Shown: positions 1-32,329 of the stretch, in pieces
How positions within the stretch are numbered: position 1 is the first letter of the stretch
Layout of the letters: every line of letters starts with the position of its first letter
IMG/VR virus record: IMGVR_UViG_3300025327_000011
Source: a virus
Strand: one strand, 5' to 3'
Length of the DNA: 32,329 nucleotides
Translations under genes and position numbers: made by a program
The notes under the pieces: generated by a model
Seen by the model: the letters and a program-made list of their open reading frames with translations, nothing else
What the model was told of the DNA's origin: nothing
Database searches by the model: none

Positions 1-127
1 CCCGAGTATAGAGTATTTCCAGAAATAGTGGTTCCAAAAATCGTTGTACCAACAATGGTTCCGCCGTTAACAGTGCCGGTAAAGGTAGCACCGGAGAGGT
101 TGGCTTTTGTTGCAAGTTGTGAATTAA
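1..127. repeat. Terminal direct overlap, identical to 32203..32329 (127 bp). Signature of a circular or terminally redundant contig.
   Basis: Base-by-base comparison by eye shows cccgagtatagagtatttcc...gttgtgaattaa at both ends with no mismatch. It lies inside the fibre-gene repeat array. Confidence 0.95.
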
Positions 128-3100
128 TTAAAGTTATGTTCGCTGGTGTTGCAAATAAAGTTGATACATCTGAAGCACCAGAGTAAAGTGTATTTCCAGA
201 AAGTGCAGTTCCAAAAACTGTTGAACCTGCTATATTACCACCTGTAACTGTACCGGTAAATGTAGCTCCACTTAGGTTTGCCTTTGTTGCAAGTTGCGAA
301 TTGATTAAAGTTATGTTCGCTGGCGTTGCAAATAAAGTTGATACATCAGTTGAACCTGAATGAATAGTTCCGCCTGAAAACGTGCCTCCACTTAGTGAAT
401 ATGCATTGACATTTCCTCCAGCGGTAATTCTCATTCTTTCTGTTGGTGTAGCATTACTAAGTGTTGAATTTCTTGTTCCAAAAATTAAATCTCCAAGTGT
501 GTGACCCACAATACTTTTCTCTTGAAATCCTATATATGCTGGCGCAATATTAGCTAATCCGGAATTATAACCAAATCCTATTAATCTGTAAGAATTTAAA
601 TTATATTCATTACTGCCTAAATGTAAATATGTTGAAGCGCTAATTACTGTTGGTGCAGTTGTGGTATCAGTTGTAGACTGAAATATGGACGATTTAACAT
701 TGTTACTATTTAAAATTTTTAAATCAATACCAAATATAGTTCCACCGCTAATAGTTGTAGAACTAAATGAAGGAGCGTTAACCTGACCTGTAAATGTATC
801 ACCAGAACGATTTGCTTTAGTTAGAAGCTGAGCTGAATGTGTTCCGGCAAGTGCTGCTGAACCGAATAATAAACTTACGTCTGAAGCACCCGAATATAAA
901 GTATTGCCAGAAAGAGTAGTTCCGAAAACTGTACTTCCAGCTATGTTTCCACCAGTAACAGTACCTGTGAAGGTAGCACCTGAAAGGTTGGCTTTTGTTG
1001 CAAGTTGTGAATTAATTGAAGTTATGTTTGCTGGTGTTGCGAATAAGGTTGATACATCAGAAGCTCCAGAGTAAAGTGTATTTCCGGAAAGGATAGTACC
1101 AAATACTGTTGAGCCGGCTATATTTCCACCGTTAACAGTACCGGTAAAGGTGGCTCCGCTAAGATTTGCCTTTGTCGCAAGTTGTGAATTAATTAAAGTT
1201 ATGTTCGCTGGTGTTGCAAATAAGGTTGATACATCTGAAGCACCCGAATATAGAGTATTTCCAGAAATAGTGGTTCCAAAAATCGTTGTACCTGCTATAT
1301 TTCCACCAGTAACGGTGCCTGTAAATGTTGCTCCGCTTAGGTTTGCCTTGGTTAAAAGCTGAGCTGAATGAGTACCGGCAAGTGCTGCTGAGCCGAATAA
1401 TAAACTTACGTCTGTACTTGCTGAAAAAATTGTAGCTCCTGAAACAGTTGTAGCACTAAAAGAAGGAGCGTTGACTTGTCCTGTAAATGTATCACCAGAA
1501 CGATTTGCCTTTGTTAAAAGCTGAGCTGAATGAGTACCGGCAAGTGCTGCTGAGCCGAATAATAAACTCACATCTGAAGCACCCGAATAAAGTGTATTGC
1601 CAGAAAGCACAGTTCCAAAAATCGTTGTACCAACAATGGTTCCACCATTGACAGTACCTGTGAATGTAGCTCCACTTAGATTTGCCTTAGTTGCAAGTTG
1701 CGAATTGATTGAAGTTATGTTTGCTGGAGTTGCAAATAAAGTTGATACATCTGTTGAGCCTGAAATTAATGTTGTAGCAGTTAAAGTCGTAAAAGAACTT
1801 GCTCCTGAAGCTGTAATTGAAGCTATAGATGGCGAATTTACTAAATTAATAGTAGGATTATTTGCAGTTCCACCTGTTGTAATATTAGTTCCAGGTTGAA
1901 CTCTGGTTATATCATTTCCATCATTAGTGGTTAAAAAAATATTATATAGATTTGTATTTCCAGAAAGTAAAATCCCTCCATTAATTGTTCCTCCACTAAT
2001 TGTAGTTGCACTTAAAGAAGGAGCGTTAACTTGTCCTGTAAATGTAGCTCCACTTAGGTTTGCTTTGGTTGCAAGTTGAGAATTAATTAAAGTAATATTA
2101 GCAGGTGTTGCAAACAGGGTTGACACATCTGTTGAGCCTGAAATAAAAGAACCATTTGTTACTGAAATGTTTCCACCATTAACAGTTATAGCTGAGGTCA
2201 ATATTTCTGTATTTGCAGACCAAGCACCTTTTGAATCAATTGTCCAAGTTGACGCGACACCGTTTGTTAATCCTGATAAAACTGAAATTCCACCATTTAA
2301 CGCACTTAAATGTGAACCTGAAAGATTCATTACAATATTATTATCAGAAGTTTGAACCGTTGCTGTATTGAAAGTTGTTGCTGTTCCAAGAACATCTACA
2401 TTTCCATAAATTTGAATCGAACCATTAACTGTTAATCCTGTTGTGCCTTGAGTTAAAATAGAATTTCCCAAAACTTTATTTCCATTCCAAAGCGGAATAG
2501 TATTTGTTGAACCAGAACCTTGAATAAATATATTTTCAATATTTGTTGAGCCTGAAATTAATGTACTTGCAGATAATGTTGTAAACGAACTTGCTCCTGA
2601 TGATGATATTGAGTTAAAACTCGGAGAATCAACTACATTAATAATTGGAAGATTTGCAGTTCCACCGGTAGTGATATTACTTCCAGGTTGAACTCTTGTT
2701 ATATCTTCAATTCCAGAAGCTAAATTTGAAATAATTGTTTCTAAATTTGTTGAGCCTGAAAAAAATGTTGTTGCAGAAATACCATTTGTTGATATTCCAC
2801 TTAATGAAATTAAATTTGGAACATAAACAGTATTTGCTATATTCGCTGAAATATTATCTCCAAAAATAAATGTTGATTTTAAACCAGAATCAATTGTAGA
2901 ACCAGAACCAACAATCATCGAACGAGGAGAGCCTGCTCCTATTATTAAATCTCTACCAACTGCTATTGAATTTTGTGAACCATAATCAATAAACACTCCT
3001 TGTCCACTTCCAATTCCTCCTGTTGATAAAATTTTTGGTCCACCAACAGCAACAACTTGCACAGGGTCACCTGGATTATTCCATGGGTGATAAATAGAAG

Positions 3101-5360
3101 TACTTGTAGTTGTACTTACAAATTTTTCTTTTAATTTAATTAATTCAACTTTTGAACTTTCATTTGATGTTGGAGAATAATTAATTGAATTTACTATAAA
3201 ATAATGTCCCGCTCCATCTTCACTTATTCCATCAATAAAAATAGAATCGCTGAATTTAAAATCATTGATATCTTGTGGAGTTAAATAAATATTACAAGAA
3301 ATTATTCTTGAATCTTTATCAGCAATACCATCGAGATAAGTTTTCCAATGTGCATTTATTAAATTATTATCAGTAATTGAATCTAAATTATAATATTCAT
3401 AATCAACTTTTCCAAATGCGATATCAGTAGTCCCTGTTGAAGGATGATTTAACATTCCTAAATAAGGAAAATAAGTTTGAGTTTGACCACTTAATAACCA
3501 AGAATCAGCAGAAGGTAAAGGTAATATATTTGCAGTATTTTTTTGTAAAATCCTAATATTAAAATCAGTTCTCCCAAAATTTTTATTTGAATCTTTCTTT
3601 CCTATTTTAGGAATAACAAATTCATTTACAGTAGAAGAACTAGATAATGACGATTCGTGAACTGATGCAGAAGGTGTTGGAGAAAAAATAACTTCTATTT
3701 TTTTCTCACCATCAATAAATTCATTATCAATTATAAAATATTCATCTCCAAATATTCTGGTGGTTGTTGTTTTATAGTCTTCATTGTAATAATCTTTATC
3801 TTCTTTATAAGTAAAAATTATTTTTTTATTTTGTTGTTCTGATATTAATTTTTGACTTATTGGAAATTTTAAATCCAATTTTTTTGTCCAATCTTTTGTT
3901 CTTAATCCTCTTGAAAAATAAGTATCACGAGGTTCTACTATTATTTTTTTTGTATTATCTTTAACAGGATCAAGATAAAGATTATGCATGTAAATTAATG
4001 AGTTTAAAAAATCTTTTTGCTTAATCTTTTTTGGAACAATACCATTAAATATTAATGTTTGTCCGGGTAAAGCTTTTGTAGAAACTTTATTATAAAAATT
4101 AGTTCCGACAGAATATAAGTTATAATTTAAATCACCTCCTGCTCCTACTACGTTTATTTTTGTGTCAAGTCTAATTGTAACATAAAAAAGTTCTCCTGGT
4201 TGAACTACTCCAAATTGAGTTCCAACATTTCCATCTAAAGGTGGTGTTAAATAAGTTTTTAGTTTTCTATTGTTTAATATTATATCTCCATTAAATGTAT
4301 TTAAAACATCTGATTGTGAATAAAAACTTCCCTCAAATCCACCTGAATAAGTTGAACGGTAAAATTTAATAATAACATTTGATATTACAGGAGCAACATT
4401 TGTATTACTTCTTGTAAATTCCTCATCTAAAGTTATTGAAAACTGTTGAACAGAAGATGTGTCTGCTGAATATTTATAAATTGTTGTATCATATAAATTT
4501 CCATTATCAAAATAAGGAGCCGGAGTTTCTTTATTTAATGGTATTGTAATTTGATCTGTGAAATCCTGTAAAATACCTGCAGTTAAAGTTTTTGTTAAAG
4601 TATAATCAGTACTTATGCCAACATCAAAACTTCTTCCTGTTGCAAAAGAATTATCTTGATTTAATTCAGTTGTTCCGTTAAATGGAATATATAAATTTGT
4701 AAAATAAGTTCCGGATAAAAAAGTTGAATCATAACTATAACCGGCAGCAGAAAATATTCTATCAACTATGGTTTTTACTTGTAAAGCAGGAAACATTTCT
4801 TCCGCTTTAACTCCCATCCCGATATTCATATCAGTTATATTTAAATCATAACCATAATCAATAAGTGGATAAAAATATGATTGATTTGAGCCTGTCCAAG
4901 ATAATGTTATTCCTGAATAATCCCAAACGTGATTTAAATCAGAGAAATCTAAATCTTCAATATAGGCATCTCCAATATTTTTAAATAAATCCTGACTTTC
5001 AGAAAAAATAGTAACTTGATAATCTATTTTTTTATTTTCATTAACAGCAATTCCTACCAATTGAAAAACACCATTTTGCATTACAGGTATTGAATCAACT
5101 GCTAAGTATGCTGGTGTTTTTTTCCTTGCATCAAAAGTGCTATCAGAACCAATATTAAATATTTGAGTAAGTAATCTATTATTTTTTTCAGAACCTTGTA
5201 TAGTAAAACTTTGTGTATATGGTGCACTTCGTTTTGAAATATCTTTTATGTCCGAAATAGACATTTTAATATTTACCGGTTCGTCTCCATAAGTATCTAA
5301 AAATCCAACAGAATTTGTTGAAGCAGTGCTAATTAATCCAAGTTCTAATTTATTTTCCAT
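1..5360 (-). CDS. Giant tail-fibre / receptor-binding protein, N-terminal portion. It starts at ATG 5358..5360, is open to the window edge, and continues at 32202 across the circular junction.
   Basis: Hand translation from 5360 gives MENKLELGLISTASTNSVGFLDTYGDEPVNIKMSISDIKDISKRSAPYTQSFTIQGSEKNNRLLTQ... with no stop in the first 66 codons. Codons at 3..62 read ...GTIVGTTIFGTTISGNTLYS in the same phase. The ORF track lists no closed minus-strand ORF in 1..5363, as expected if this frame has no stop inside the window. The start lies 4 nt after the stop of the upstream gene (5364). I did not hand-check every codon. Confidence 0.8.
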   Translation of the reverse strand, partial: MENKLELGLISTASTNSVGFLDTYGDEPVNIKMSISDIKDISKRSAPYTQSFTIQGSEKNNRLLTQIFNIGSDSTFDARKKTPAYLAVDSIPVMQNGVFQLVGIAVNENKKIDYQVTIFSESQDLFKNIGDAYIEDLDFSDLNHVWDYSGITLSWTGSNQSYFYPLIDYGYDLNITDMNIGMGVKAEEMFPALQVKTIVDRIFSAAGYSYDSTFLSGTYFTNLYIPFNGTTELNQDNSFATGRSFDVGISTDYTLTKTLTAGILQDFTDQITIPLNKETPAPYFDNGNLYDTTIYKYSADTSSVQQFSITLDEEFTRSNTNVAPVISNVIIKFYRSTYSGGFEGSFYSQSDVLNTFNGDIILNNRKLKTYLTPPLDGNVGTQFGVVQPGELFYVTIRLDTKINVVGAGGDLNYNLYSVGTNFYNKVSTKALPGQTLIFNGIVPKKIKQKDFLNSLIYMHNLYLDPVKDNTKKIIVEPRDTYFSRGLRTKDWTKKLDLKFPISQKLISEQQNKKIIFTYKEDKDYYNEDYKTTTTRIFGDEYFIIDNEFIDGEKKIEVIFSPTPSASVHESSLSSSSTVNEFVIPKIGKKDSNKNFGRTDFNIRILQKNTANILPLPSADSWLLSGQTQTYFPYLGMLNHPSTGTTDIAFGKVDYEYYNLDSITDNNLINAHWKTYLDGIADKDSRIISCNIYLTPQDINDFKFSDSIFIDGISEDGAGHYFIVNSINYSPTSNESSKVELIKLKEKFVSTTTSTSIYHPWNNPGDPVQVVAVGGPKILSTGGIGSGQGVFIDYGSQNSIAVGRDLIIGAGSPRSMIVGSGSTIDSGLKSTFIFGDNISANIANTVYVPNLISLSGISTNGISATTFFSGSTNLETIISNLASGIEDITRVQPGSNITTGGTANLPIINVVDSPSFNSISSSGASSFTTLSASTLISGSTNIENIFIQGSGSTNTIPLWNGNKVLGNSILTQGTTGLTVNGSIQIYGNVDVLGTATTFNTATVQTSDNNIVMNLSGSHLSALNGGISVLSGLTNGVASTWTIDSKGAWSANTEILTSAITVNGGNISVTNGSFISGSTDVSTLFATPANITLINSQLATKANLSGATFTGQVNAPSLSATTISGGTINGGILLSGNTNLYNIFLTTNDGNDITRVQPGTNITTGGTANNPTINLVNSPSIASITASGASSFTTLTATTLISGSTDVSTLFATPANITSINSQLATKANLSGATFTGTVNGGTIVGTTIFGTVLSGNTLYSGASDVSLLFGSAALAGTHSAQLLTKANRSGDTFTGQVNAPSFSATTVSGATIFSASTDVSLLFGSAALAGTHSAQLLTKANLSGATFTGTVTGGNIAGTTIFGTTISGNTLYSGASDVSTLFATPANITLINSQLATKANLSGATFTGTVNGGNIAGSTVFGTILSGNTLYSGASDVSTLFATPANITSINSQLATKANLSGATFTGTVTGGNIAGSTVFGTTLSGNTLYSGASDVSLLFGSAALAGTHSAQLLTKANRSGDTFTGQVNAPSFSSTTISGGTIFGIDLKILNSNNVKSSIFQSTTDTTTAPTVISASTYLHLGSNEYNLNSYRLIGFGYNSGLANIAPAYIGFQEKSIVGHTLGDLIFGTRNSTLSNATPTERMRITAGGNVNAYSLSGGTFSGGTIHSGSTDVSTLFATPANITLINSQLATKANLSGATFTGTVTGGNIAGSTVFGTALSGNTLYSGASDVSTLFATPANITLINSQLATKANLSGATFTGTVNGGTIVGTTIFGTTISGNTLYS
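790..1760 (-). repeat. Second coding tandem array of two alternating fibre repeat types (ANLSGATFTG and ANRSGDTFTG units).
   Basis: Motif copies lie near 790, 965, 1141, 1318, 1480 and 1657, with 162-177 bp spacing. The block gagctgaatg.gt.ccggcaagtgctgctga.ccgaataataaact recurs near 830, 1360, 1520, 30910 and 31790. Confidence 0.8.
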
Positions 5361-5363
5361 TTT

Positions 5364-6959
5364 TTAATTTCTTTGTCCATTAAATTTTGAAGCAAGTTTA
5401 TAAGAAAAACTATAATTAAATAATTTATCATTTAGAGAATTTTTTACTTCAAAATTTGATTCATCTAATATTATTGGTGTCGCTGTTCCATCACTATTAA
5501 TTACAAATACTTCCGGAGAAGTAATTAATTCTTCTAACCAAACACTTTCCACATCTGAAATCCAATCAGATGTTACTTTATAAGAATATTGGCCATCAAC
5601 ATCTAAAACAGTGCTTCCACGGTCTCCCAATTGATAATTATAATCAAGGACTTTACGATAAGTATTACGAGTAACGCTTATCGTTTTTTTAGAAACTAAA
5701 TTGAAATTAAAATAATCAAAGCCTCCAAGTCTGTTTAAAAATTGTAATCTAACAGTAGAATATTTTCCGCATTTTGTATCAATTAAATAGGTTTTTACTT
5801 CTGAAATAGTGCTTCCATTATCTGCATTTAGTGAATATTTATAATCAGTTGAAAGATTTATTGTAGCTCCGGAATTTGGAAGATTATTTAAATTCCAAAT
5901 TCCTGATGGAATATGTACAACAGAATCTGAAGTTATACCTGTATTTGCTAAATAATAAGTCTTAGTTCCACCTGAATTTTGGTAAGTTATAAGTTTCATT
6001 CTTGTTGCAGCGCTATAAATTTGCATAAATGATAAAGTTCCTCTATCAGTAGAATTTTTTATATAAACTTCCGCTGGCTGATTTGTTAAAAATTTCTTTG
6101 TTGACCCTCCCATTAAATAATCTGAATAATTCCAAGAAGGTATTTGCTCATATTGATTTACACCATTAAAAGTATAGCCTGAGAAAAAAGTAAGTGCTGA
6201 ATAAATTGTCACTCCTGTATTTAATGTTCCATATTCCTCACCTATTTTTAAAATATAAGGAATCATATGTTTATTTGAATTTGTTGGCTCTACAATGTTT
6301 TGAATTCTTGCATCGCATCCTAAATAAGATTCTAATATACGAGCAGGAGAAAATATACAATTTCCTGTTGAACCTGGTCTTGGTAAAAGCTTTACTCTTG
6401 CTTGAGCATTGCCTCCACCTGTGTTTCCAGTAAAAATATCAAATACATATTTGTAATTAGGAAAGCTATAAAAAATCGATAATACATTAAAATAAATAGG
6501 ATTATAAACCGGAGCAATAAATCCTTGACTTGCTCCAGTAAAAGATGAAATAATAATACTTGAACAATCTTTTACAAAATCTATGTTTGCGGAACCTTGA
6601 CGAATATTAAAAGTTAAAGTTGCATTTCCAACCGCTGCTCCAATAGCTAAAGAAATACCAGTAGTTGTAATTGTTGTTGCAGTAGCTGTTCCAAACATAA
6701 CATCAATAGCAAATGGAGAAGATGCTCCTAAAATATTAACTTCTATTATATGAGAAGTTGATGTGCCAAAATCAGTAAAAACATTTGTTTGAAATAAAGT
6801 ATTATCTCCTGGTGAAACATAATTTCCATCTGCTCCATTACTTAATGGATAAGTATCAGAAGGTGTCCATGCGGCGTTTGCTCCTATACCCCAATTTGTA
6901 AATGGGCTTCCTGTACCGTTATCTAAAAGTGTTGGATTTAAAATTGAAATATTTGCCAT
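5364..6959 (-). CDS. Virion structural protein (putative tail or baseplate component), 531 aa.
   Basis: Long ORF immediately upstream of, and nearly abutting, the fibre gene. It is beta-rich, with a Ser/Thr/Asn/Gly-rich composition. No diagnostic motif was recognised. Confidence 0.35.
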   Translation of the reverse strand: MANISILNPTLLDNGTGSPFTNWGIGANAAWTPSDTYPLSNGADGNYVSPGDNTLFQTNVFTDFGTSTSHIIEVNILGASSPFAIDVMFGTATATTITTTGISLAIGAAVGNATLTFNIRQGSANIDFVKDCSSIIISSFTGASQGFIAPVYNPIYFNVLSIFYSFPNYKYVFDIFTGNTGGGNAQARVKLLPRPGSTGNCIFSPARILESYLGCDARIQNIVEPTNSNKHMIPYILKIGEEYGTLNTGVTIYSALTFFSGYTFNGVNQYEQIPSWNYSDYLMGGSTKKFLTNQPAEVYIKNSTDRGTLSFMQIYSAATRMKLITYQNSGGTKTYYLANTGITSDSVVHIPSGIWNLNNLPNSGATINLSTDYKYSLNADNGSTISEVKTYLIDTKCGKYSTVRLQFLNRLGGFDYFNFNLVSKKTISVTRNTYRKVLDYNYQLGDRGSTVLDVDGQYSYKVTSDWISDVESVWLEELITSPEVFVINSDGTATPIILDESNFEVKNSLNDKLFNYSFSYKLASKFNGQRN

Positions 6960-6996
6960 TTATTGTTTATTATAAATATAAATTTAATTTATTAGT

Positions 6997-7275
6997 TTAA
7001 AATGATTTTTCTATCTGCCTTACTAATTCTGATTCTACAAATTCTATGAATTCATTTGAACTTAATACTTCTGATGATATTTTATGCTTTTCATCCAAAA
7101 ATTTAAAATAATCTTCTCCTAAAACATTAAAAGAACCATCATTATTTGCTATAACTTCTATTGAATTTAAAAGCTTGCCGGATTTAACTAAATCTTTTTC
7201 AATTATTTTTTCTTTAATTAATTTTTCAATTAATTTAGCAGTTGGATTCCAATCTATTTTAAATTCGTTTTTCAT
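6997..7275 (-). CDS. Hypothetical protein, 92 aa.
   Basis: ORF in the structural operon, 6 nt downstream of the preceding gene. No motif recognised. Confidence 0.5.
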   Translation of the reverse strand: MKNEFKIDWNPTAKLIEKLIKEKIIEKDLVKSGKLLNSIEVIANNDGSFNVLGEDYFKFLDEKHKISSEVLSSNEFIEFVESELVRQIEKSF

Positions 7276-7281
7276 AAAAAA

Positions 7282-8253
7282 TTAAGATATAGGTAATGAG
7301 CAATAATTTGTCGGCTTTTTTAATTTAAATTCCAATGTGCAAGCCCAGCCGGAAACTTCTTCATCACTCCATTCTTCTAATGGATCTAAATTTATATCTC
7401 CAACCAATGTTAAAAATCCTAATTGATAAAAAGAATGCTCATTTATTTCTGTTATTATATCACTAATCATTTGAAATGTGTCGCTATGAGCATCATCTTG
7501 ATTATCAGTTGATTTATTTACAAGGTCTAATACTTTTAAGTTAATAAAAAATGATTTTGATGGATATGAGCCAGAAATTTCACTTTTAGGATACGTTCCA
7601 TTTGATAATTGAACATACATTGCTGGATATACTGGCTTTAATGAAGTTGCAAAATTATAATCTTTGCCATGGCCGAATGTATTTAATTGAAAATGTCTTT
7701 CTTGAATATCTTTTAAAACTAAAAGTACTTGATTATAAGTAAGGATTTTCCCATCAGGTATAGCAGGAATTGGAGTGCTTGAACTAAATGGTAACCCGCA
7801 GAATGAATTTTTATTTTTTAACCTAAATGTTATTTGTGTTTTAAATCCTGAAAGTTCTTCATCACTGAATTGTTCTAATGCTTCGAAATTAATATCTGAA
7901 TTGATAGAAACAGAATTTTCAATATAATTCTCGTTTTCATTTATTTCAGTTACAATATCACTTATTATTTGCTCACAATCTGAATAAACATCACTAATAT
8001 TATTAAGTCCTTTATTAACTAAATCTAAAACCTTAAGTTCAACAGTAAAATCCTTACTATTGTATGAATCATTTGCTTCTGATTTATAAAACGTACCAGA
8101 TATTGGCGTTATAAATAGTATTGGATATATATACTTAGTTGAACCGGCGAAATCTTCATCTTTTCCTATATCAAATGAATTTATTTGGCGGTGATTAGAC
8201 GCAATTGAACGAAGTTCAGAAATAATTTGATTATATGTTAGAATTGTACTCAT
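7282..8253 (-). CDS. Structural protein made of two homologous halves (internal tandem domain duplication), 323 aa.
   Basis: Residues 4-160 and 170-323 align by eye. ILTYNQIISELRSI...FDIGKDEDFAGS...YPILF...ELKVLDLVNK...IISDIVTEINE...FCGLP matches ILTYNQVLLVLKDI...FGHGKDYNFATS...YPAMY...NLKVLDLVNK...MISDIITEINE...YCSLP. Confidence 0.6.
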   Translation of the reverse strand: MSTILTYNQIISELRSIASNHRQINSFDIGKDEDFAGSTKYIYPILFITPISGTFYKSEANDSYNSKDFTVELKVLDLVNKGLNNISDVYSDCEQIISDIVTEINENENYIENSVSINSDINFEALEQFSDEELSGFKTQITFRLKNKNSFCGLPFSSSTPIPAIPDGKILTYNQVLLVLKDIQERHFQLNTFGHGKDYNFATSLKPVYPAMYVQLSNGTYPKSEISGSYPSKSFFINLKVLDLVNKSTDNQDDAHSDTFQMISDIITEINEHSFYQLGFLTLVGDINLDPLEEWSDEEVSGWACTLEFKLKKPTNYCSLPIS

Positions 8254-8257
8254 TTAT

Positions 8258-8560
8258 TTAATTATAAATATTATTTTTTTGTGCTTGTTTTTGTTTTGAT
8301 TCGAAAAATTGTTCCTTTTCCTTCCAAAAGCTTAAAAGATTTAAAGCAGAAATCCAATTTACTTTATATATTTCTTCAAACTTTGTTATATCTCCCTGTG
8401 CAAGCTTTTCTATTATCGAAAACCAACTCCAACGATTAAAACTTGTATCTATTTGGTCTCCATCTTTTGTTGAAAACTCTTCTTGTTCTTCATTTTTATT
8501 TTGGATGTTGAAAATTCCACTGAATTGTTTGAGGGTTTTTTCTCTCCAAGCAAAAAAAAA
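8258..8560 (-). CDS. -1 frame extension of the 8449..9090 gene. Candidate programmed frameshift fusion of about 277 aa, or a homopolymer assembly error.
   Basis: Hand translation of the -1 frame from the T9 run gives FFFAWREKTLKQFSGIFNIQNKNEEQEEFSTKDGDQIDTSFNRWSWFSIIEKLAQGDITKFEEIYKVNWISALNLLSFWKEKEQFFESKQKQAQKNNIYN, then TAA at 8258..8260. That stop is 4 nt before the ATG of the next gene (8253). The -1 frame is closed by TAG (8563..8561) immediately upstream of the run. Confidence 0.5.
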   Translation of the reverse strand, partial: FFFAWREKTLKQFSGIFNIQNKNEEQEEFSTKDGDQIDTSFNRWSWFSIIEKLAQGDITKFEEIYKVNWISALNLLSFWKEKEQFFESKQKQAQKNNIYN

Positions 8561-9090
8561 CTAATTATATCATAAACATCAGTTATCATAATAAATTTGG
8601 ATTTTTCATTGATGATTAAATTAATGTTATCCGGATTAAAAGGTTCTATATTTCCATCTGGAAGTATTCTTCTAAATAAAACTCCAAATGCTATTTCTGT
8701 TGGCGTTAAATCAAAAGCTTGTTTATCTTTTAACATAGTTTCAATTGAAATGCTTTCACCAACAGTTAATTTTGTGAAATCCTTTTTTATTGTCCATTCT
8801 TCATCATCTATTTTAAAAGAAGTTACAGGAACTTTCGAAGTTTTAGGCTCAACATTCATCCATTTGAATGAATCCTGTATCTTTTTGAAATCATCCACGT
8901 TTATATTAATTGCTATTTTAGAAAATTCAGGATTATTACATAAAAGTGATAATGTTTTTATAAATACTTCAATAGAAGAAGAGTTTTTATCCTCTGCAGA
9001 ATTTAAGATATCAATGTAATTTTTTAAAGTAACTTCATCCCATCCGGAAGGAAATAAAAATTCTTTATTTTCTATTTTTAAGTTTAGCAT
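8449..9090 (-). CDS. Hypothetical protein, zero-frame product (213 aa). It contains a U9 slippery run 33 codons before its TAG stop.
   Basis: Track ORF. The minus strand reads ATT AGT TTT TTT TTG CTT at 8565..8548. Confidence 0.6.
   Translation of the reverse strand: MLNLKIENKEFLFPSGWDEVTLKNYIDILNSAEDKNSSSIEVFIKTLSLLCNNPEFSKIAININVDDFKKIQDSFKWMNVEPKTSKVPVTSFKIDDEEWTIKKDFTKLTVGESISIETMLKDKQAFDLTPTEIAFGVLFRRILPDGNIEPFNPDNINLIINEKSKFIMITDVYDIISFFLLGEKKPSNNSVEFSTSKIKMKNKKSFQQKMETK
8552..8563 (-). promoter_or_regulatory. Candidate -1 ribosomal slippery site: U UUU UUU UUG within a U9 run.
   Basis: The plus strand has A9 at 8552..8560. The heptamer fits X XXY YYZ, and the open -1 frame begins exactly here. 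Confidence 0.45.
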
Positions 9091-18268: not shown

Positions 18269-18294
18269 AGCAATAGTTATCTTTTATTTTTAAG

Positions 18295-25029: not shown

Positions 25030-26691
25030 TTAAGGAGTAAAATTAGCTCTTCTCTCTAAAACTGCATCTGAATTTTGTTGATTTGTTAAATCCTGACTAA
25101 TTACATAAACTTTTGATGGTTTATTTATTGTACTTGATGAATTTGTTGAACCAATTTTTTGTAATTCATTTCCAGTAAAAGCACCTGATGCATTTGGCGA
25201 TGCTGATGAAGGAGAAGCTGGTACAGCAACTCCTGAACTTTCTCCTCCACCATTAAGCGTAAATTGAGTTGCCGCTATTTTTGCCACATTTGTCGCGGCA
25301 GCAATTCCAACTGAAACAGCTGTTGCAACTTTTAAAATTGTTCCAAATGGCTCAGGAACAACTGATTGAGCTGATAAAGCATTAACAACACCTTGAATAC
25401 CTGATATTACAGCAGATTGAATGGCTAATGCTTTATTAATTTTAAATTGTTGTCTTGCTGCTTTTTCTTCTTCTGCACTTCCCTTTCTTGTATTTGCCAT
25501 TTTTACAGAAAAGAATAAATCAGATAAAGCAATTAAAGAGTCATTTGAAGTTTTAGCAATTTCGAACATAGAATCTTGCCTATTTTTTGCATCCTGAACT
25601 GATTTTAATGAATCAGATTCTTCTTTTGTAATTCTATCATCTTCTGCTTTTTCTTTAGCTTTTAATTTAGCCATCCAAGCTTCTCCGGATAATTTTATTC
25701 TTTCTTGTTCTATTCTATAACTTTCTAAAGAGGATTTTTCTTCTAATTCTATTTTAGCATCTTCTGCTTCTTCTTTAGCTTTTAATTCAGCCATCCAAGC
25801 TTTACCACTTTCTTTTAATTTATCCTCTTCTATTTTTTTATGTTCATCATTATACTCTTTATTTATTTTTACTTTTTCATCAGATGTTTTCTTTTCGTTA
25901 GCAATGGTTTTAGCTTTAATTTCAACTTCGGCATTATGAATTGTTGTTACTAAAGTTTCTAATTGCTCCATTTGAGCTTTAGTTAAAGTTCCATTCGCTT
26001 CATAAACAGCTTTTAATGCATTAACTTGAACTCTCGCAGTTTCAATAACAGCTTCTTGTTTTTTGATTTCAAGTGTAGTAACATCTTTTCCGGCTGCATT
26101 AGCAAGTTTTATTTCATCATCATATCTTTGTGTTACTGCTGCACCTGCTTTTTTAGACGCTTCTATTGTTTTTTCAGCATTATCTTCAATAGCATTATTA
26201 GTTATTCCTAACCAATCAGTTAAATCCTTAAAAGCTTGAATAACTGTATCAATTACATCTTTAATAAATCCAAAAACTTTTCCTATTAAACCACCTGATT
26301 GAGTTAGTTTTTCAAAATTTTCAATTACATATTTAATTCCCTCAATTAAAAGAAAAATTGGAATAGCTTTCATTGCTAAACCCAAAACTTTAAATCCAGC
26401 TCCAAGTTTTCCTGGGTCTGCGTTTACAAATCCTTCTTTTAATAATCCTAAAGATGAGTTTAATTTTTCAATTCCTGACCCTTTTAATGAATTTGTAGCT
26501 TCATTAAGGTCTTCCATTTTATCTTTTAATTCAGCAACTCTTTCAGAAGCACCAGCAACTCCTTTTATGGCATCAGACATGGCAGCTTTAGTCTCTTTTT
26601 TTAGACGAGTCATTTCATCAACAACTTTTCCAACATTTTGAGATGCTTGACCGGTATCTATTTTTATTTTTAATTCTATATCCTTTGCCAT
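25030..26691 (-). CDS. Coiled-coil protein with hydrophobic segments. Tape-measure-like or internal/ejection protein, 553 aa.
   Basis: Long heptad-like Lys/Glu/Ala-rich regions, hydrophobic stretches (FKVLGLAMKAIPIFLLIEGI, AVISGIQGVVNAL...VATAVSVGIAAATNVAKIAA), and an internal 40-aa duplication. Confidence 0.45.
   Translation of the reverse strand: MAKDIELKIKIDTGQASQNVGKVVDEMTRLKKETKAAMSDAIKGVAGASERVAELKDKMEDLNEATNSLKGSGIEKLNSSLGLLKEGFVNADPGKLGAGFKVLGLAMKAIPIFLLIEGIKYVIENFEKLTQSGGLIGKVFGFIKDVIDTVIQAFKDLTDWLGITNNAIEDNAEKTIEASKKAGAAVTQRYDDEIKLANAAGKDVTTLEIKKQEAVIETARVQVNALKAVYEANGTLTKAQMEQLETLVTTIHNAEVEIKAKTIANEKKTSDEKVKINKEYNDEHKKIEEDKLKESGKAWMAELKAKEEAEDAKIELEEKSSLESYRIEQERIKLSGEAWMAKLKAKEKAEDDRITKEESDSLKSVQDAKNRQDSMFEIAKTSNDSLIALSDLFFSVKMANTRKGSAEEEKAARQQFKINKALAIQSAVISGIQGVVNALSAQSVVPEPFGTILKVATAVSVGIAAATNVAKIAATQFTLNGGGESSGVAVPASPSSASPNASGAFTGNELQKIGSTNSSSTINKPSKVYVISQDLTNQQNSDAVLERRANFTP
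25638..25800 (-). repeat. 120-bp-period internal duplication (43-nt near-identical cores at 25638..25680 and 25758..25800).
   Basis: catcttctgctt.ttctttagcttttaatt.agccatccaagc occurs twice with 2 mismatches. It encodes AWMA.LKAKE.AED. Confidence 0.85.
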
Positions 26692-26731: not shown

Positions 26732-27667
26732 TTATATGATAGTTTCTATTACGTGATATGTGAAATTTGCTACATCAGTTGTTCCTACACCTAAATTTAA
26801 TGTAAAAGACGAAGTAGTTGAAGTTACGTAAGTTGAATTCATCCTAACTGCTCCTGCTGAATTGGTAGCAGAAATTACAACTATAGGTGCTGTTACATAT
26901 AAATAACCAAATGGAAATGTTACAGTTCCTGCTGCTGTAGTTGGAGTTATTTGTACATTACCTGCCACATCTGTACATTTAGTTCTCGATTGTGAACCTG
27001 CGACGTAAGTAGTAGTTGTTATTGCATTAAATGTAGCATTATTTGACTGAGTCTCAATAATGTGATAATCATAAGTATGAACTTCTGCTAAAATAGCAGA
27101 AGTTGTATTTACAATAAATTTATTTAAATATGATGTTGTATAAACACATATATTATCTATGGCTGCTAAAACATTTGTTGGACTTATTACAATAATTGGT
27201 TCAGTTGCATAAGTATAACCATATGTTATTGTTGCTCCAGTTCCTGCATTATTTAATTTTGGAGTAATTGAAAAATGACCAGCAATATCTGTTGCATTTG
27301 TTCTACTAGATGTTGTTGCTGCCGCACCGGTTGCTATAGTTAAACCAGATGCATTATTTGTTTGAGTTTCAAAAGCGTGATAATTATATGAATGACTAAG
27401 TGTAATATTAGCACCAGCGCTAATATTAATTGTAAAATCATTTTGTGTGCTTGTAACATAAATTAAAGAAGAATCAGTTGCTGAAACTGAATTTATTGGA
27501 GAAATTATAACAATTGGAGCAATACCATATGTATAACCAAATGAAATAGTTACAGTACTTGCTATAGAAGAACTTAATGCAAAAGTTACATTTCCAGCAA
27601 CATCTGTTGCTTTATTAATTGAAGAAGAAGATATTCCTCTTGTATGTCCAATTGTTGGTAAAGCCAT
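26732..27667 (-). CDS. Protein of three tandem domains of about 105 aa. Possible carbohydrate-binding (H-type-lectin-like) receptor-binding accessory protein, 311 aa.
   Basis: Repeats start at residues 21, 126 and 232 (TDVAGN / TDIAGH / TDVAGN). Each contains F/YGY.Y...P(I/V)(I/V)VIS..N and ends Y(N/D)YH.(F/I)ETQ.NNA. It lies immediately downstream of the fibre gene. Confidence 0.5.
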   Translation of the reverse strand: MALPTIGHTRGISSSSINKATDVAGNVTFALSSSIASTVTISFGYTYGIAPIVIISPINSVSATDSSLIYVTSTQNDFTINISAGANITLSHSYNYHAFETQTNNASGLTIATGAAATTSSRTNATDIAGHFSITPKLNNAGTGATITYGYTYATEPIIVISPTNVLAAIDNICVYTTSYLNKFIVNTTSAILAEVHTYDYHIIETQSNNATFNAITTTTYVAGSQSRTKCTDVAGNVQITPTTAAGTVTFPFGYLYVTAPIVVISATNSAGAVRMNSTYVTSTTSSFTLNLGVGTTDVANFTYHVIETII

Positions 27668-27719: not shown

Positions 27720-30700
27720 TTAATCCTGTTGACTTTGAATATGTCCATTTTTTATTGAAAGTTTTGCGTTGGTAACAAATGATGTTGTGCCTATTCCAAT
27801 ACTTCCAGTTGTTTGAGAAAATGCCATTACAGTTCCTACGGTAGGGTTATAAATATTCAAATCGTTAGAACTTGCAGGTCTATATATAACCCATTTTTGT
27901 GTTGCTGCATTTGTAAATTCTAAAGCTGATTGATACCCATTTGCTGCATCTATTCTAATGTATTGATTTGCTGTTGATGCTGAACTTCCTACTTGTAATA
28001 ATTGAGAGGGGGTGGTTGTTCCTATGCCTACACTTCCAGTACCGGCAATTCTCATTACTTCTGGTGCAAGTGTATTATCAGTATTGGAAGTTCTGAAAGA
28101 TATATAGCCAGATCCAGTCGATGATTGCATGGTGATTCTAGAATGCGTTGCGACTGTAGAACCAAAAATACCATCAACAGTCTTTCTGTTAATGTCCCAA
28201 TATGCAGAACCTGTATTGGTTGCACTTTCTAAATTTAAAAATGTTGCAACATTAGCGCCACCTGTATTACTTGATATTTGAAATTGATTAACATCTGTGC
28301 CTTTGATGTGTAGAATACTTGTTGGGGTTGTTATTCCAATACCTACATTACCACCAGTTGGTTGTAGATTAACATAGCTAGTAGTTTTTGTTGCATTACT
28401 TGTACCATCAATTGTTATAACACCATTAGCTGCATTACTGCCATAAATTTGTGGTGTTATCAATGATGTACTTGCTGACATTGTAACAGCACTAAAAGTA
28501 TTGGCTATTGCACTACCACTTATTTCTAATTTTTGAGAAGGGGAAGTTGTTCCTATGCCGACGTTACCACCGTTAGGGTTCAAACTTAATGGTCTGGTTG
28601 TGTTAGAATTAGTTAAATTTTGTGCTTGAATCCAACTTCCGTATGGGGAAGCATTACCTACCCCCATTGTCATTACTTCATCCTGAGATCCATCTAAAAC
28701 AAATAATCCATTTGCAATTTGTCCAGATGATGAGGGATAAGATGCTGTTCCTTTAATATGAGTTTTGAGAAGTGGCGTTGTTGTTCCTATGCCGACGTTA
28801 CCAGCAAGACTAATGAACATTCTTGTGCTTAATGTTGCTGCACCGGTAGCACCACTTGGAGCAGTATAAAAATAAAAATTACCATTAGCCATTTCAATAA
28901 CATTGCCATAACCATTAGCTCTATATTTCCAACCACCATTGTAATAAATATTGTCACTTATCATTACATCACTTACTGCATATCCTTGGAGTTCTATACT
29001 TCCTACTTTCAATGAACTATTTGTTGAACTACCGGTTATTTCAAGTAAGGTTACTGGATTAGGAATTCCAACTCCAACGTTGCCAGAAGGTAATATAACC
29101 ATACTTGGAGCAGTAGTAGTTCCATTAGTTCTTTGGAAATAAGTATATCCATATGTTCCTGAATCACCTGCAATGAAATTTGAAACACCTTGGGATGTAT
29201 TAATAAGACTAAATGCTGTAGTTGTTTTCCTGTCTATCTTAATTCCATCAAGCAAATAACTAACTTCATCTTTACTTATGTGAAGCGGATTAGTAGGTGA
29301 AATTCCTATTCCGACATTTCCACCTGTTGATAATATCATTTGATCAACGTTGTTCTCTCTAAAATGTATATTTAACCCAGTTTGTCTATTAATATACAAT
29401 GATTTTCCCGGTGCACTATAAAAATTTGAACCTAAACCATTTAAACCATTAAGACTAATTACTCCATAAGCTGTATTTGAAGACCAACTGTCAATAAGGA
29501 CACTACCTGTACCAGAACCTTTTACTACTAATCTATCTGCAGGCGTTGCTGTCCCAATTCCTACATAACCATTTGTGTGTATTCTCATTAACTCGGTAGA
29601 TGTATGAAAAAAAGCGAATGGTTTAGCTGCGCTATGATAAAAATTTAATGAACTAACGCCACCATAACCAACATTGCCTGAACCATTCTTAAAAATTTCA
29701 GAGGTTCCACCTGATGCGGTAAATATTAATTCTGTGTATGAAGATTGTACAGCACTACCAATGTTTGCTTGTACTGAAACGGTAGATGATTGTACATCTA
29801 ATTTATAACCAGGAGTAACTGTTCCTATGCCTACGTTTCCACCACCTAAAACTGTTACTAAATTTGTTGTAAAATTTTTAATTTGCAACAATGTTTCAGA
29901 AGGAGAAAGTGCTTGCCAAGCTGTACCATTAGCTTTGCCACCAATAATAGTGGCTGCTGGTGTTGTATCAGTTGGATTACTTGATCCAATAATAGCATAG
30001 ATATTTAATGCCTTTGTATCACCGCTACTTATTCCAACAACATTCAATCCACCTAATGTACTGGAAATTGGACCCATATAACCATACACGTTTGTTGGTG
30101 TTATAGCTGTCATACCGTGAGCTAAATCAGAATCAGATAATTGAAAAATGCCATCTTTAACTTCTAATTTGCTTGAAGGGGTTGCTGTGCCAATCCCAAC
30201 ATATCCAGTTTGCCCAGAAATCCTCATAAATTCAGTACCACCATCAGTACCACCTTTAAAAATAATATCAGCACCTGCACCAGCAACACCAGTTGTGGGT
30301 TTAAAAGTTAAAGCTTGAGTTGTAGAAGTTCCACCAATAACTAAAGGAGAAGTAACAGAAGTGGAAGCGCTTATTGTAACAGCACTAAAAGTATTAGCTA
30401 TAGCACTACCGTTTACTTCTAATTTTTGAGAAGGAGAAGCTGTACCAATCCCCACACTCCCACCAGATAAAATAGCAATTCTTGTAGCACCATTTAAATA
30501 AAATACCATACCATTTGGACCAGCATATGTTCCTGTTGCATTGTCTACGAATATTTCTCCATACCCAACTGTTCCAGCAGTGTTTTTAAAATCAACCTGT
30601 GAATAATTTGGTAAACTAATATATGAAGAAGTTGTTAAAATTCCAGATAATGTCAAAGCATTAAATGAAGGGCTTGTAGCAACGTTGATAATTGGAGAGT

Positions 30701-32329
30701 TTGCAGTTCCACCGGTTGTGATATTACTTCCTGGTTGTACAAATACTCTATTCGCATTTATTTGAGCGTTTGTAATTAATGATAATTCTGTTGCGCCTGA
30801 ATACAATGTTCCACCACCAACGGTTGTAGCTGTAACAGTTGTGGCTGATAAACTTGGAGCTAATATATTACCTGTGAATGTTGCTCCACTTAGATTTGCT
30901 TTAGTTAAAAGCTGAGCTGAATGAGTACCGGCAAGTGCTGCTGAACCGAATAATAAACTTACGTCTGTACTTGCTGAAAAAATTGTAGCTCCTGAAACAG
31001 TTGTAGCACTAAAAGAAGGAGCGTTAACTGTACCTCTGATACTTAAATTTTTAGGAAAAAATTGACTTGGATTCAATACGTCAATTCCATTACTAACACT
31101 TACATTGTCAATTATAACACCTGCCGGCGCATATATAGACGCTCTAACATATAAAGGTGATTGTGTTACACTTGTATTAGCACTACCATCATATAATGTT
31201 GTCCAAGTATCGCCACTATTATTACTTAAGTAATATTTAGCTCCATAATTTTCATTTGTTACTATTTTAAGTCTGTAAGTTATACCAGCTGTATATACAT
31301 AAGAAGTTGTAAATACTGAAACAGCATTTTCATATATTGCAATACCACCACCATTATAAAAATAAATAGCGTGTGGCATATTGGTATAATTCATAGTTGT
31401 CGTACTAGCCCATCCATACATCGCGTAACTTGTTGCATTTGGATTAATAACATCCATCATTAATGTAAGTGTGTTTGTTCTATCATAAGCTTGGGTACTT
31501 GTAATACCATGTGATGTCCAATTACTAATTCCAGATATTGATAAATCATTATTTTGTGTGACTACGCCAGTAGCAGTCCAATTTGAAGTGTTAAAAACAG
31601 TCCCATCAAATGTATCTGTAAATTGAACAAAATCTCCATTATTTGAGTTTGCTCCAACTGTTAATGCTCCAGAAGTGTAATTATTATTAATTATAGCAGT
31701 AGTTGCACTTATTGTTGTGGCACTTAAAATAGGAGTGTTAACTTGACCTGTGAATGTAGCTCCTGATAGATTTGCTTTAGTTAAAAGCTGAGCTGAATGG
31801 GTTCCTACAAGTGCTGCTGAACCGAATAATAAACTAACATTTGAAGCACCCGAATATAGAGTGTTTCCAGAAAGAATAGTTCCAAACACTGTACTTCCGG
31901 CTATGTTTCCACCGGTAACTGTACCAGTAAATGTTGCTCCACTAAGATTTGCCTTTGTCGCAAGTTGTGAATTGATTAAAGTTATGTTCGCTGGCGTTGC
32001 AAATAAAGTTGATACATCTGTTGAGCCTGAATATAAAGTGTTTCCAGAAAGAATAGTTCCAAATACCGTGCTTCCAGCTATGTTTCCGCCTGTAACAGTG
32101 CCGGTAAATGTGGCTCCGGAAAGGTTGGCTTTGGTTGCGAGTTGTGAATTAATTAAAGTTATGTTCGCTGGTGTTGCAAATAAAGTTGATACATTTGAAG
32201 CACCCGAGTATAGAGTATTTCCAGAAATAGTGGTTCCAAAAATCGTTGTACCAACAATGGTTCCGCCGTTAACAGTGCCGGTAAAGGTAGCACCGGAGAG
32301 GTTGGCTTTTGTTGCAAGTTGTGAATTAA
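27720..32329 (-). CDS. Giant tail-fibre / receptor-binding protein, C-terminal portion (stop at 27720..27722). It is the same ORF as 1..5360. The combined ORF is 9843 nt, or 3280 aa, on the 32202-bp circle.
   Basis: The track ORF 27720..31889 begins at an internal GTG. I translated 31890..32102 in the same phase with no stop (…NTLYSGSTDVSTLFATPANITLINSQLATKANLSGATFTGTVTGGNIAGSTV). The product has fibre-like repeats: KANLSGATFTG motifs, 11 copies of G(N/S/Y)VGIGT..P..KL.V.G, and VQPGSNITTGGTAN. Confidence 0.85.
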   Translation of the reverse strand, partial: NSQLATKANLSGATFTGTVNGGTIVGTTIFGTTISGNTLYSGASNVSTLFATPANITLINSQLATKANLSGATFTGTVTGGNIAGSTVFGTILSGNTLYSGSTDVSTLFATPANITLINSQLATKANLSGATFTGTVTGGNIAGSTVFGTILSGNTLYSGASNVSLLFGSAALVGTHSAQLLTKANLSGATFTGQVNTPILSATTISATTAIINNNYTSGALTVGANSNNGDFVQFTDTFDGTVFNTSNWTATGVVTQNNDLSISGISNWTSHGITSTQAYDRTNTLTLMMDVINPNATSYAMYGWASTTTMNYTNMPHAIYFYNGGGIAIYENAVSVFTTSYVYTAGITYRLKIVTNENYGAKYYLSNNSGDTWTTLYDGSANTSVTQSPLYVRASIYAPAGVIIDNVSVSNGIDVLNPSQFFPKNLSIRGTVNAPSFSATTVSGATIFSASTDVSLLFGSAALAGTHSAQLLTKANLSGATFTGNILAPSLSATTVTATTVGGGTLYSGATELSLITNAQINANRVFVQPGSNITTGGTANSPIINVATSPSFNALTLSGILTTSSYISLPNYSQVDFKNTAGTVGYGEIFVDNATGTYAGPNGMVFYLNGATRIAILSGGSVGIGTASPSQKLEVNGSAIANTFSAVTISASTSVTSPLVIGGTSTTQALTFKPTTGVAGAGADIIFKGGTDGGTEFMRISGQTGYVGIGTATPSSKLEVKDGIFQLSDSDLAHGMTAITPTNVYGYMGPISSTLGGLNVVGISSGDTKALNIYAIIGSSNPTDTTPAATIIGGKANGTAWQALSPSETLLQIKNFTTNLVTVLGGGNVGIGTVTPGYKLDVQSSTVSVQANIGSAVQSSYTELIFTASGGTSEIFKNGSGNVGYGGVSSLNFYHSAAKPFAFFHTSTELMRIHTNGYVGIGTATPADRLVVKGSGTGSVLIDSWSSNTAYGVISLNGLNGLGSNFYSAPGKSLYINRQTGLNIHFRENNVDQMILSTGGNVGIGISPTNPLHISKDEVSYLLDGIKIDRKTTTAFSLINTSQGVSNFIAGDSGTYGYTYFQRTNGTTTAPSMVILPSGNVGVGIPNPVTLLEITGSSTNSSLKVGSIELQGYAVSDVMISDNIYYNGGWKYRANGYGNVIEMANGNFYFYTAPSGATGAATLSTRMFISLAGNVGIGTTTPLLKTHIKGTASYPSSSGQIANGLFVLDGSQDEVMTMGVGNASPYGSWIQAQNLTNSNTTRPLSLNPNGGNVGIGTTSPSQKLEISGSAIANTFSAVTMSASTSLITPQIYGSNAANGVITIDGTSNATKTTSYVNLQPTGGNVGIGITTPTSILHIKGTDVNQFQISSNTGGANVATFLNLESATNTGSAYWDINRKTVDGIFGSTVATHSRITMQSSTGSGYISFRTSNTDNTLAPEVMRIAGTGSVGIGTTTPSQLLQVGSSASTANQYIRIDAANGYQSALEFTNAATQKWVIYRPASSNDLNIYNPTVGTVMAFSQTTGSIGIGTTSFVTNAKLSIKNGHIQSQQD
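31740..32329 (-). repeat. Coding tandem repeat array with a 177-bp (59-aa) period. It continues at 1..370 across the junction, about 5 units in total.
   Basis: The motif cc(g/t)gt(a/g)aa(t/g)gt(a/g)gc.cc...(a/g)(g/a)(g/a)tt(t/g)gc, encoding ANLSGATFTG on the minus strand, starts near 31747, 31924, 32101, 32278 (equivalent to 76) and 253. Spacing is exactly 177 bp. Confidence 0.85.
32203..32329. repeat. Second copy of the 127-bp terminal overlap (identical to 1..127).
   Basis: Same comparison as above. The minus-strand reading frame is preserved across the junction: codon phase at 32327 equals phase at 125, and 5360-125 is divisible by 3. Confidence 0.95.

Follow-up and report, generated by a model that had tools for sequence, protein, structure and literature searches.

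The window analyzed here is the complete 32,329-nucleotide stretch of IMG/VR virus record IMGVR_UViG_3300025327_000011. Its dominant feature is one minus-strand gene that runs across both ends of the contig and encodes a giant modular phage fiber protein of 3,280 amino acids (aa), which probably begins with a tail-tip hub domain.

A giant open reading frame spanning the contig ends

The 127 bases at the start of the window (1..127) are identical to the 127 at its end (32203-32329), an overlap of the kind left when a circular or permuted genome is assembled, and a circle of 32,202 bp is obtained once one copy is dropped. On this circle a minus-strand open reading frame (ORF) starts at the ATG at 5360, crosses the 1/32202 junction and ends at the stop at 27720, so that its 9,843 nt (3,280 codons) contain a single stop, the terminal one. 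The product has a mass of 341 kDa, the gene takes up 30.6% of the genome, and the next-longest ORF, of 553 aa, is about one-sixth as long. An in-frame TAA two codons 5' of the ATG is the stop of the upstream 531-aa gene, from which the giant gene is separated by a gap of only 3 bases. At the base composition of this strand, the probability of a 3,280-codon frame remaining open by chance is about 1e-124. The sequence-only reading of this DNA had proposed such a wrap-around ORF of about 30% of the genome, with its two parts joined in phase by the overlap, and had named a stop codon within 128..5160 as one observation that would overturn it; on the merged circle we found none before the terminal stop. 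The frame is also longer than the 27720..31889 segment given in the list of ORFs, as that reading maintained, the listing having taken an internal GTG as the start and omitted ORFs that run off the window. Unless the contig is circularized the gene cannot be seen as one unit, a point of caution for annotation.

The overlap encodes aa 1745-1787 and thus lies within a tandem array with a period of 177 nt (59 aa) according to Tandem Repeats Finder (TRF). No exact repeat in the gene exceeds 80 nt, which is less than the length of the overlap (127 nt); the closing k-mer is therefore unique and the closure unambiguous. Both the frame and the 59-aa spacing of the units are maintained across the junction, and the cycle cannot be a short repeat loop because it holds a full phage gene complement at the contig size typical of the family. 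An independent MEGAHIT contig from the European Nucleotide Archive (L093, 7,727 bp) is colinear with window positions 8833..1110 at 99.87% identity without gaps, and shows a single mismatch over the first 4,251 nt of the ORF. It confirms the N-terminal anchor domain and the first five repeat units (to aa 1417), at which point L093 itself ends, inside the array.

Modular organization of the product

From the N- to the C-terminus the gene and its product are organized as follows (the basis of each assignment is given in parentheses):

3081..5360, minus strand: putative Tal/baseplate-hub-like structural anchor, aa 1-760 (AlphaFold2 model, Foldseek, homologs)
2760..3080, minus strand: Gly/Ser-rich neck, predicted left-handed β-roll, aa 761-867 (UspA1 profile match; common to close relatives)
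2142..2759, minus strand: first VQPG unit and conserved shaft domain, aa 868-1073 (motif position; homologous stretches)
759..2141, minus strand: first array with seven 59-aa units, and second VQPG unit, aa 1074-1534 (TRF, motifs)
360..758, minus strand: non-repeat insert 1, aa 1535-1667, ending in ERMRITAGGNV (sequence)
1..359, minus strand: first part of the second array of five 59-aa units, aa 1668-1787, crossing the junction (motifs, TRF)
1..127, no strand: terminal overlap, encoding aa 1745-1787 (exact match to 32203-32329)
31671..32202, minus strand: remainder of the second array, aa 1788-1964 (59-aa spacing kept over the join)
31068..31670, minus strand: globular insert 2, aa 1965-2165 (sequence relatives)
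30462..31067, minus strand: 13th KANLSGATFTG unit, third VQPG unit (aa 2275) and linker, aa 2166-2367 (motifs)
27720..30461, minus strand: about ten tandem modules of 72-122 aa, aa 2368-3280 plus stop (bounded by 11 GxVGIGT..P..KL.V motifs)

The L.TKAN.SG.TFTG motif occurs in 13 copies, so the repeat reported earlier is real but its number, given as about 14, is not. The VQPG(S/T)NITTGGTAN motif is present three times (at aa 890, 1154 and 2275) and the G-x-(V/I)-G-(I/V)-G motif 11 times, exactly as had been counted. The modular fiber nature of the protein, likewise claimed from the sequence alone, is borne out by the agreement of the motif map, the PHROG tail-fiber families, the match to PDB 8OND and the matches to cyanophage fibers described below.

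The N-terminal anchor domain

The non-repetitive N-terminal domain of about 760 aa had been delimited correctly in the sequence-only reading, but it appears to be a hub domain resembling Tal and the baseplate hub protein (BHP) and not merely the start of a fiber. We found 474 homologs in a large protein collection, mostly on contigs of 28-35 kb, and homologs at 77 IMG/VR loci; no Pfam or PHROG family covers the domain, and tblastn searches against 50,697 phage records gave no match. Searches of the PDB, with the single sequence and with a family profile, left the hub region unmatched. The AlphaFold2 model, calculated from a 58-sequence alignment, has a mean predicted local distance difference test score (pLDDT) of 84 and a predicted template modeling score (pTM) of 0.83. 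Its top Foldseek match in the PDB is 7zhj_b (E=1e-6, probability 1.0, TM-scores 0.27/0.23), a chain of 949 residues that, judging from this length, we take to be the baseplate hub protein pb3 of phage T5. In T5, pb3 is the trimer that closes the tail tube, and the central fiber starts at its C-terminus (PMC10038345). Because the anchor of the giant protein appears to be tail-tip hub-like, its fiber is most likely a single central trimer.

Foldseek matches of the C1q/TNF jelly-roll type cover a stretch of about 200 columns of the anchor, which suggests that a C1q/TNF-like jelly-roll is inserted at aa ~245-430 (an estimate, the matches being reported without residue ranges). In BFVD, 211 viral proteins match the anchor model at E<=1e-3 with TM-scores of up to 0.80. 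Among the matches listed nearly all come from uncultured phages, with lengths of 610-1,482 aa and varied C-termini (e.g. collagen or BACON). A conserved anchor combined with a variable C-terminus is the pattern expected of a receptor-binding protein.

Neck, shaft and inserts

The neck was assigned from a search of the PDB with the family profile, in which profile positions 738-855 matched the UspA1 head (3NTN, E=3e-5), and this match backs the β-helix-like Gly/Ser-rich segment noticed earlier. Close relatives carry Pfam YadA_head repeats in addition. The neck may therefore be an obligate-trimer β-roll like the heads of trimeric autotransporter adhesins, which would back the trimer indirectly. 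The resemblance concerns the fold only: the giant protein is phage-encoded and has no outer-membrane β-barrel anchor, and does not belong to the trimeric autotransporter adhesins (YadA/UspA1) themselves. The segment that follows (aa 868-1073) has homologous stretches in the metagenomic fibers P0122, P0123, P0126, P0132 and P0153.

The units of the first array fall into two sequence subtypes. Pairs of 59-aa units show 93-98% identity at the amino acid level vs 78-86% at the nucleotide level, and the same codon is used at only 50-70% of their conserved residues; the duplications are therefore old, each copy has been under strong purifying selection, and the copies can be distinguished by short reads. 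We considered the pentapeptide repeat family (PF00805) and discarded it: the score of 40.8 bits is a sum of short matches, one per 59-aa unit, of which none are contiguous, none constitutes a significant stretch, and the best covers 14 residues (aa 1336-1349). A foreign origin of the extension was rejected as well, since the GC content of third codon positions (GC3) is native and uniformly low over the ORF (0.10-0.18, compared with 0.07-0.23 in the other genes of the phage), and the higher GC of the extension is an effect of codon position 2, due to its richness in Gly, Ala, Thr and Ser.

Two near-identical proteins from other assemblies differ in the array. P0121 lacks aa ~259-366 of the domain inserted in the anchor, has fewer 59-aa units, possesses a different inserted domain of the GNVGIGT type after the third KAN unit, and its C-terminal modules are diverged. 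In P0001 the first unit is joined to the last through a garbled stretch rich in Pro, Gly and Ala; we do not regard it as a natural deletion variant, as the garbled join looks like a sequencing or assembly error. Together the two proteins hint at population-level variation in fiber length, and the repeat copy number needs confirmation by long reads.

Insert 1 (~130 aa) was missing from the earlier list of modules. A hidden Markov model of the ten C-terminal modules matches it weakly (aa 1610-1651, independent E-value 0.014), and it may represent a divergent member of the β-helix module class found at the C-terminus. Insert 2 has 99 representative relatives, many of them within proteins of 2,000-5,490 aa, and neither the insert nor 20 of these relatives match a convincing Pfam family beyond sporadic hits to DUF2341 and BNR. 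The sole profile match in the PDB is to the N-terminal motif of a GH16 porphyranase (E=0.11). One might guess that insert 2 is possibly a ConA-like or lectin jelly-roll with a putative binding function. The earlier label of a jelly-roll-like insertion thus holds for the insertion, while the jelly-roll itself is not established by the Pfam and PDB results.

The C-terminal modules match the PHROG tail-fiber families 18345 (E=4e-20) and 9942 (E=7e-19) and align to Bd2133 (PDB 8OND, E=2e-6) and Bd3182 (8OJN, E=0.03), in which the matching regions are trimeric β-helix domains of fiber adhesins according to the crystal structures (PMC10769870). In tblastn searches these modules match proteins of cultured cyanophages annotated as "tail fiber" or "chaperone of endosialidase" (E=5e-27), as well as structural proteins of cyanophage S-TIM54 and of a roseophage. 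We accordingly classify them, by homology, as predicted trimeric β-helix fiber modules. A Peptidase_S74 chaperone was not detected by Pfam anywhere in the ORF. With two globular inserts and ten β-helix modules, a multi-receptor adhesin is a plausible description of the protein, whereas we found no evidence supporting the "branched" appendages that had also been suggested.

Neighboring genes and gene order

Four other genes of the phage were examined along with the giant gene:

5364..6959, minus strand: 531-aa upstream partner, predicted tail-tube fold plus Ig-like domains, Dit-like (synteny, AlphaFold2, Foldseek)
7282..8253, minus strand: 323-aa protein, tandem duplicate of a ~160-aa domain (self- and homolog comparison)
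25030..26691, minus strand: 553-aa probable tape-measure protein (sequence features)
26732..27667, minus strand: 311-aa orphan gene, 52 nt downstream of the fiber stop

The 531-aa gene accompanies the anchor in 83 of the 92 related loci. Its AlphaFold2 model (pLDDT 86) is mostly Ig-like, and a local Foldseek comparison of its domain retrieved monocin tube/tip/cap chains and a Mu baseplate chain (probability 1.0, E=5e-3 to 1.5e-2). A tube-fold protein beside a hub-like protein is the arrangement of the Dit-Tal pair (PMC7291167), with which the predicted fold and the linkage of the 531-aa neighbor show moderate agreement.

The 553-aa protein is rich in Lys, Glu and Ala, appears helical by eye and contains hydrophobic segments at aa ~96-125 and ~448-472. 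Its gene is conserved in 25 loci; we found no annotated homolog, and tblastn against the same 50,697 phage records returned nothing. Its composition and hydrophobic segments make it a probable tape-measure protein. In a related 31.6-kb genome (L217) the homolog of this gene lies directly downstream of the hub-fiber gene (L217:21489-24098). The tail-tip genes are followed by a head module (protease, 209-aa, 318-aa and 170-aa proteins, portal), which is an unusual order for a tailed phage; the same order, with the putative tape measure downstream and the head module after the tail tip, is kept in relatives such as L002 and L217.

The 311-aa protein consists of three tandem repeats of ~100 aa that are 38-46% identical. 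None of the 92 related loci contains a homolog, and the protein matches no Pfam or PHROG family, nothing meaningful appearing in Pfam even at E-values of up to 10. The position of its gene after a tipless fiber suggests a role accessory to that fiber, and we regard the protein as a candidate fiber accessory, tip or assembly protein. The idea that it is a detached tip domain of the K1-lyase_C-like type was discarded, as hhalign comparison with the tip domains of the relatives gave a probability of 3%.

The two halves of the 323-aa protein are 47% identical (E=9e-50), and both match the N-termini of P0125, P0127, P0140, P0141, P0144 and P0153 (E=1e-9 to 1e-47). In related phages of ~30 kb a second long fiber (1,359-1,914 aa) has this ~160-aa domain as its N-terminal anchor; here the domain is fiberless. 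One may speculate that three copies of the duplicate could assemble into a ring of pseudo-sixfold symmetry, like that of the T5 tube protein.

Length compared with homologs

The earlier description of the size as extreme is justified by three comparisons. Among 70 complete genes of the anchor family read from DNA, the products range from 314 to 1,613 aa (median 983). For the 66 complete IMG/VR ORFs with an exact KANLSGATFTG motif the median length is 620 aa and the longest has 1,589 aa; 60 of them contain a single copy of the motif, the maximum being 3 as compared with 13 here. The longest published evolved Tal protein has 2,020 aa (PMC7533335), while gpJ of lambda has 1,132 aa (PMC7291167). 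With 3,280 aa and 13 units the protein is a clear outlier, about 1.6 times as long as the longest described Tal. Length statistics were taken from DNA loci because the word-indexed protein search seems to be partitioned by length; the ranges from the protein collection are probably censored, the 760-aa query matching proteins of <=1,297 aa and the 2,420-aa query proteins of >=1,334 aa.

Long proteins built from these shaft units exist elsewhere, namely the metagenomic P0122 (3,222 aa), P0148 (3,161 aa) and P0133 (2,946 aa), none of which has a Tal-like anchor. L217 encodes two fibers, one of 1,431 aa on the ~160-aa anchor and one of 1,488 aa on a Tal-like anchor, which jointly occupy 27.7% of its genome. 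What sets the phage studied here apart is therefore less the size of its total investment than the packing of it into one polypeptide, and the giant protein is an extreme variant of a known design and not a new kind of system.

The L217 gene for the fiber with the ~160-aa anchor (L217:10001-14296) lies in synteny with the 323-aa gene, and the shaft of its product is 42.7% identical to aa 1066-1508 of the giant protein. The simplest reading of these relationships is that shaft modules moved between two virion anchors; the giant shaft seems to have arisen by the shuffling of modules, with the ~160-aa anchor left in this phage only as the fiberless duplicate. A bolder scenario, which we put forward only tentatively and consider somewhat unlikely as a whole, would be that the shaft moved from the ~160-aa anchor to the hub, yielding a central fiber longer than its own tail. 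The near-identical units with scrambled synonymous sites would resist recombinational collapse, the strain-variable number of units would tune the reach through a thick host layer, and the 311-aa protein would supply the tip.

A hub fused to a fiber: model and alternatives

Taken together, the data make it probable, though by no means certain, that the ORF encodes a tail-tip hub protein of the Tal/baseplate-hub type fused to a fiber, in a long-tailed phage of about 32 kb. The trimeric stoichiometry, central position, type of ligand and length of the fiber are inferred by analogy with T5 pb3 and the evolved Tal proteins. According to this model, three N-terminal domains of ~760 aa would seal the tail tube at its distal end, with a ring of the 531-aa protein above them, and the three C-terminal stretches of ~2,500 residues would form one central trimeric fiber, composed of the UspA1-like neck, the VQPG units, the 13 KANLSGATFTG units in two arrays, the two inserts and the approximately ten β-helix modules. 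The fiber would bind the host surface at a distance, probably through a polysaccharide, and binding would be relayed to the hub, as in T5, upon which the hub would open and the DNA would be delivered. In the T4 long tail fiber, ~2,500 residues per chain account for ~145 nm; scaled from this value, the fiber would measure roughly 100-150 nm and would exceed the tail implied by a 553-aa tape measure.

Several observations weigh against this model. The TM-scores of the pb3 match are low (0.27/0.23), and the weaker Foldseek matches are to VgrG and to baseplate chains of contractile systems, because of which the choice between hub and wedge is unsettled. The PDB searches with the single sequence and the family profile gave no sequence-level match of the anchor to any Tal or to gp27. 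The identification of the 553-aa protein as a tape measure derives purely from sequence features, and the canonical TMP-Dit-Tal order (TMP, tape-measure protein) is absent, the putative tape measure being downstream of the hub-fiber gene. No major tail or sheath protein was identified in the genome, so the morphotype is unproven. At the distal end no C-terminal tip domain is recognizable, the ORF ending 22 aa past the last GSIGIGT motif, and ligand binding is putative for every module. Finally, the contig break falls inside the array, where the unit count of the assembly is independently backed to aa 1417 only, and the variant proteins P0121 and P0001 carry fewer units.

The strongest competing explanation, which we nevertheless consider unlikely, accepts a real virion fiber but anchors it peripherally in the baseplate or its wedges, as side fibers in at least six copies, instead of in the central hub. 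It could account for the Foldseek matches to baseplate chains of the extracellular contractile injection system (eCIS) of Algoriphagus (7aef_q), of diffocin (8v3w_H) and of cyanophage A-1(L) (8kea_A), whose TMq values of 0.19-0.27 lie close to the one obtained for T5, and for the putative tape measure not being upstream, unlike in classic siphophage tail modules. However, the E-values of these matches are about 1,000-fold weaker than that of the match to pb3, PHROG and Pfam searches detected no sheath or other contractile-tail gene, and both the neighboring protein with its predicted tube fold and the single-copy architecture agree with a Dit-Tal pair.

Less likely again is that one chain is translated and then matured into pieces, by proteolysis between hub and fiber or by loss of the C-terminus. 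Processing of Tal and of the C-terminal chaperones of fibers is known in other phages. Relatives of the Bd3182 type end in an autoproteolytic S74 domain (PMC10769870), and the phage itself encodes an XkdF-like protease. Against this, we detected neither S74/Peptidase_S74 nor another protease motif in the ORF, and processing would alter neither the genetic finding nor the function of the fiber. The proposal that the length is partly an assembly artefact, with a different true number of units or, in the extreme case, a closure that joins two population variants, can draw on the ends of both contigs lying inside the array (that of the MEGAHIT contig at aa 1417) and on the fewer units of P0121 and P0001 (the latter with its garbled join), but we regard it as the least probable of the three, given the uniqueness of the 127-mer, which makes the de Bruijn path at k=127 unambiguous, and given that the cycle holds a complete phage gene set at family-typical size, that frame and period are kept at the join, that the units are distinguishable at 78-86% nucleotide identity, and that even errors of whole units would leave a giant in-frame ORF.

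Relationships to known systems

Among characterized proteins, those closest in architecture to a hub fused to a fiber are the evolved Tal proteins of Streptococcus thermophilus siphophages of the pac group, in which domains are inserted in the hub fold and a long C-terminal extension carries globular inserts. The evolved Tal adjoins Dit, and the phages have genomes of a similar size class. Its N-terminal domain of ~800 aa is decorated, and its extensions have been seen as thin beaded fibers at the tail tip (PMC7533335). There the globular inserts resemble carbohydrate-binding modules (CBMs) and the extension, in proteins of up to 2,020 aa, is collagen-like with CBMs of the BppA type (PMC7533335), whereas the giant protein has a shaft of 59-aa and β-helix modules, reaches 3,280 aa and shows no detectable sequence similarity to them. 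The hosts of the evolved Tal phages are Gram-positive, while the anchor family is linked to Bacteroidota, and the gene order relative to the tape measure is different.

The T5 tail tip provides the best structural match of the anchor, a hub trimer that continues into a central fiber, and an adjacent tube-fold gene. T5, however, splits the hub (pb3), the fiber (pb4) and the receptor-binding protein (pb5) over three genes (PDB 7ZHJ; PMC10038345), where the phage described here uses one chain. The T5 fiber, of ~31 nm, is made of strings of FNIII domains and a β-helix spike, and the extension of the giant protein is about 8 times that of pb3.

With the MAT adhesins Bd2133 and Bd3182 of Bdellovibrio bacteriovorus the protein shares the (E)RMRI...GNVGIGT..P..KLxV signature and the character of a modular, chimeric fiber. 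Bd2133 and Bd3182 sit on the bacterial cell surface, measure ~1,000 aa and combine two β-helix domains with a distinct tip or an S74 chaperone (PMC10769870), in contrast to the approximately ten β-helix modules in succession, without a tip domain, found here. The shaft units, finally, recur in metagenomic fibers (P0122, P0148, P0133, P0125, P0127, P0140, P0141, P0144 and P0153) that combine VQPG or VQNG units with KANLSGATFTG units, and the shaft of P0127 is 43% identical to aa 1066-1508 of the giant protein. These fibers have the ~160-aa anchor or other N-termini but no Tal-like anchor, and all are unannotated hypothetical proteins.

Our findings thus describe a small phage that places nearly a third of its coding capacity in one gene for host recognition, and suggest a probable structural role for a formerly unannotated tail-tip family that has hundreds of members in uncultured phages and includes copies integrated in Bacteroidota genomes. 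With two anchors, varying repeats and swapped C-terminal modules, the family and its relatives offer a natural series for the evolution of fiber length and modules, which could supply long modular shafts for the engineering of receptor-binding proteins.

The phage, its relatives and other regions of the genome

Genes for a large terminase, a portal, an XkdF-like protease, a holin-like protein, two sigma-factor-like proteins and a replication initiator identify the element as a phage. None of the 50,697 phage records exceeds 28.5% identity to its terminase, and no close cultured relative is among them. Contigs of Mb scale from Chitinophagaceae, Chitinophaga polysaccharea and Ferruginibacter contain some homologs of the anchor; the anchor family therefore includes integrated copies, probably prophages. 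All anchor homologs on Mb-scale or isolate-genome contigs belong to Bacteroidota. The closest relative of the anchor in the genome collection (42% identity over aa 1-742) is encoded by L078 (VFLE01000090.1), a 5.2-kb contig from a bin of Candidatus Shapirobacteria, and this assignment to the Candidate Phyla Radiation (CPR) is probably a binning artefact.

The genes of the two sigma-factor-like proteins are located at 12539-13138 and 14032-14772, both on the minus strand; one matches PHROG 351 at E=9e-23 and the second more weakly. Their presence suggests a phage-directed redirection of host transcription. Beside the replication-initiator gene, positions 16200-18750 of the window form an ORF-poor, very AT-rich stretch (GC 0.23-0.26) in which the GC and AT skews flip sign and which contains two 48-nt direct repeats and a 21-nt tandem repeat (17229-17376). 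A cluster of plus-strand ORFs of 63-118 aa, the only sizeable ones seen on that strand, occupies 16520-18268. The stretch could be a replication origin or a divergent early or regulatory module.

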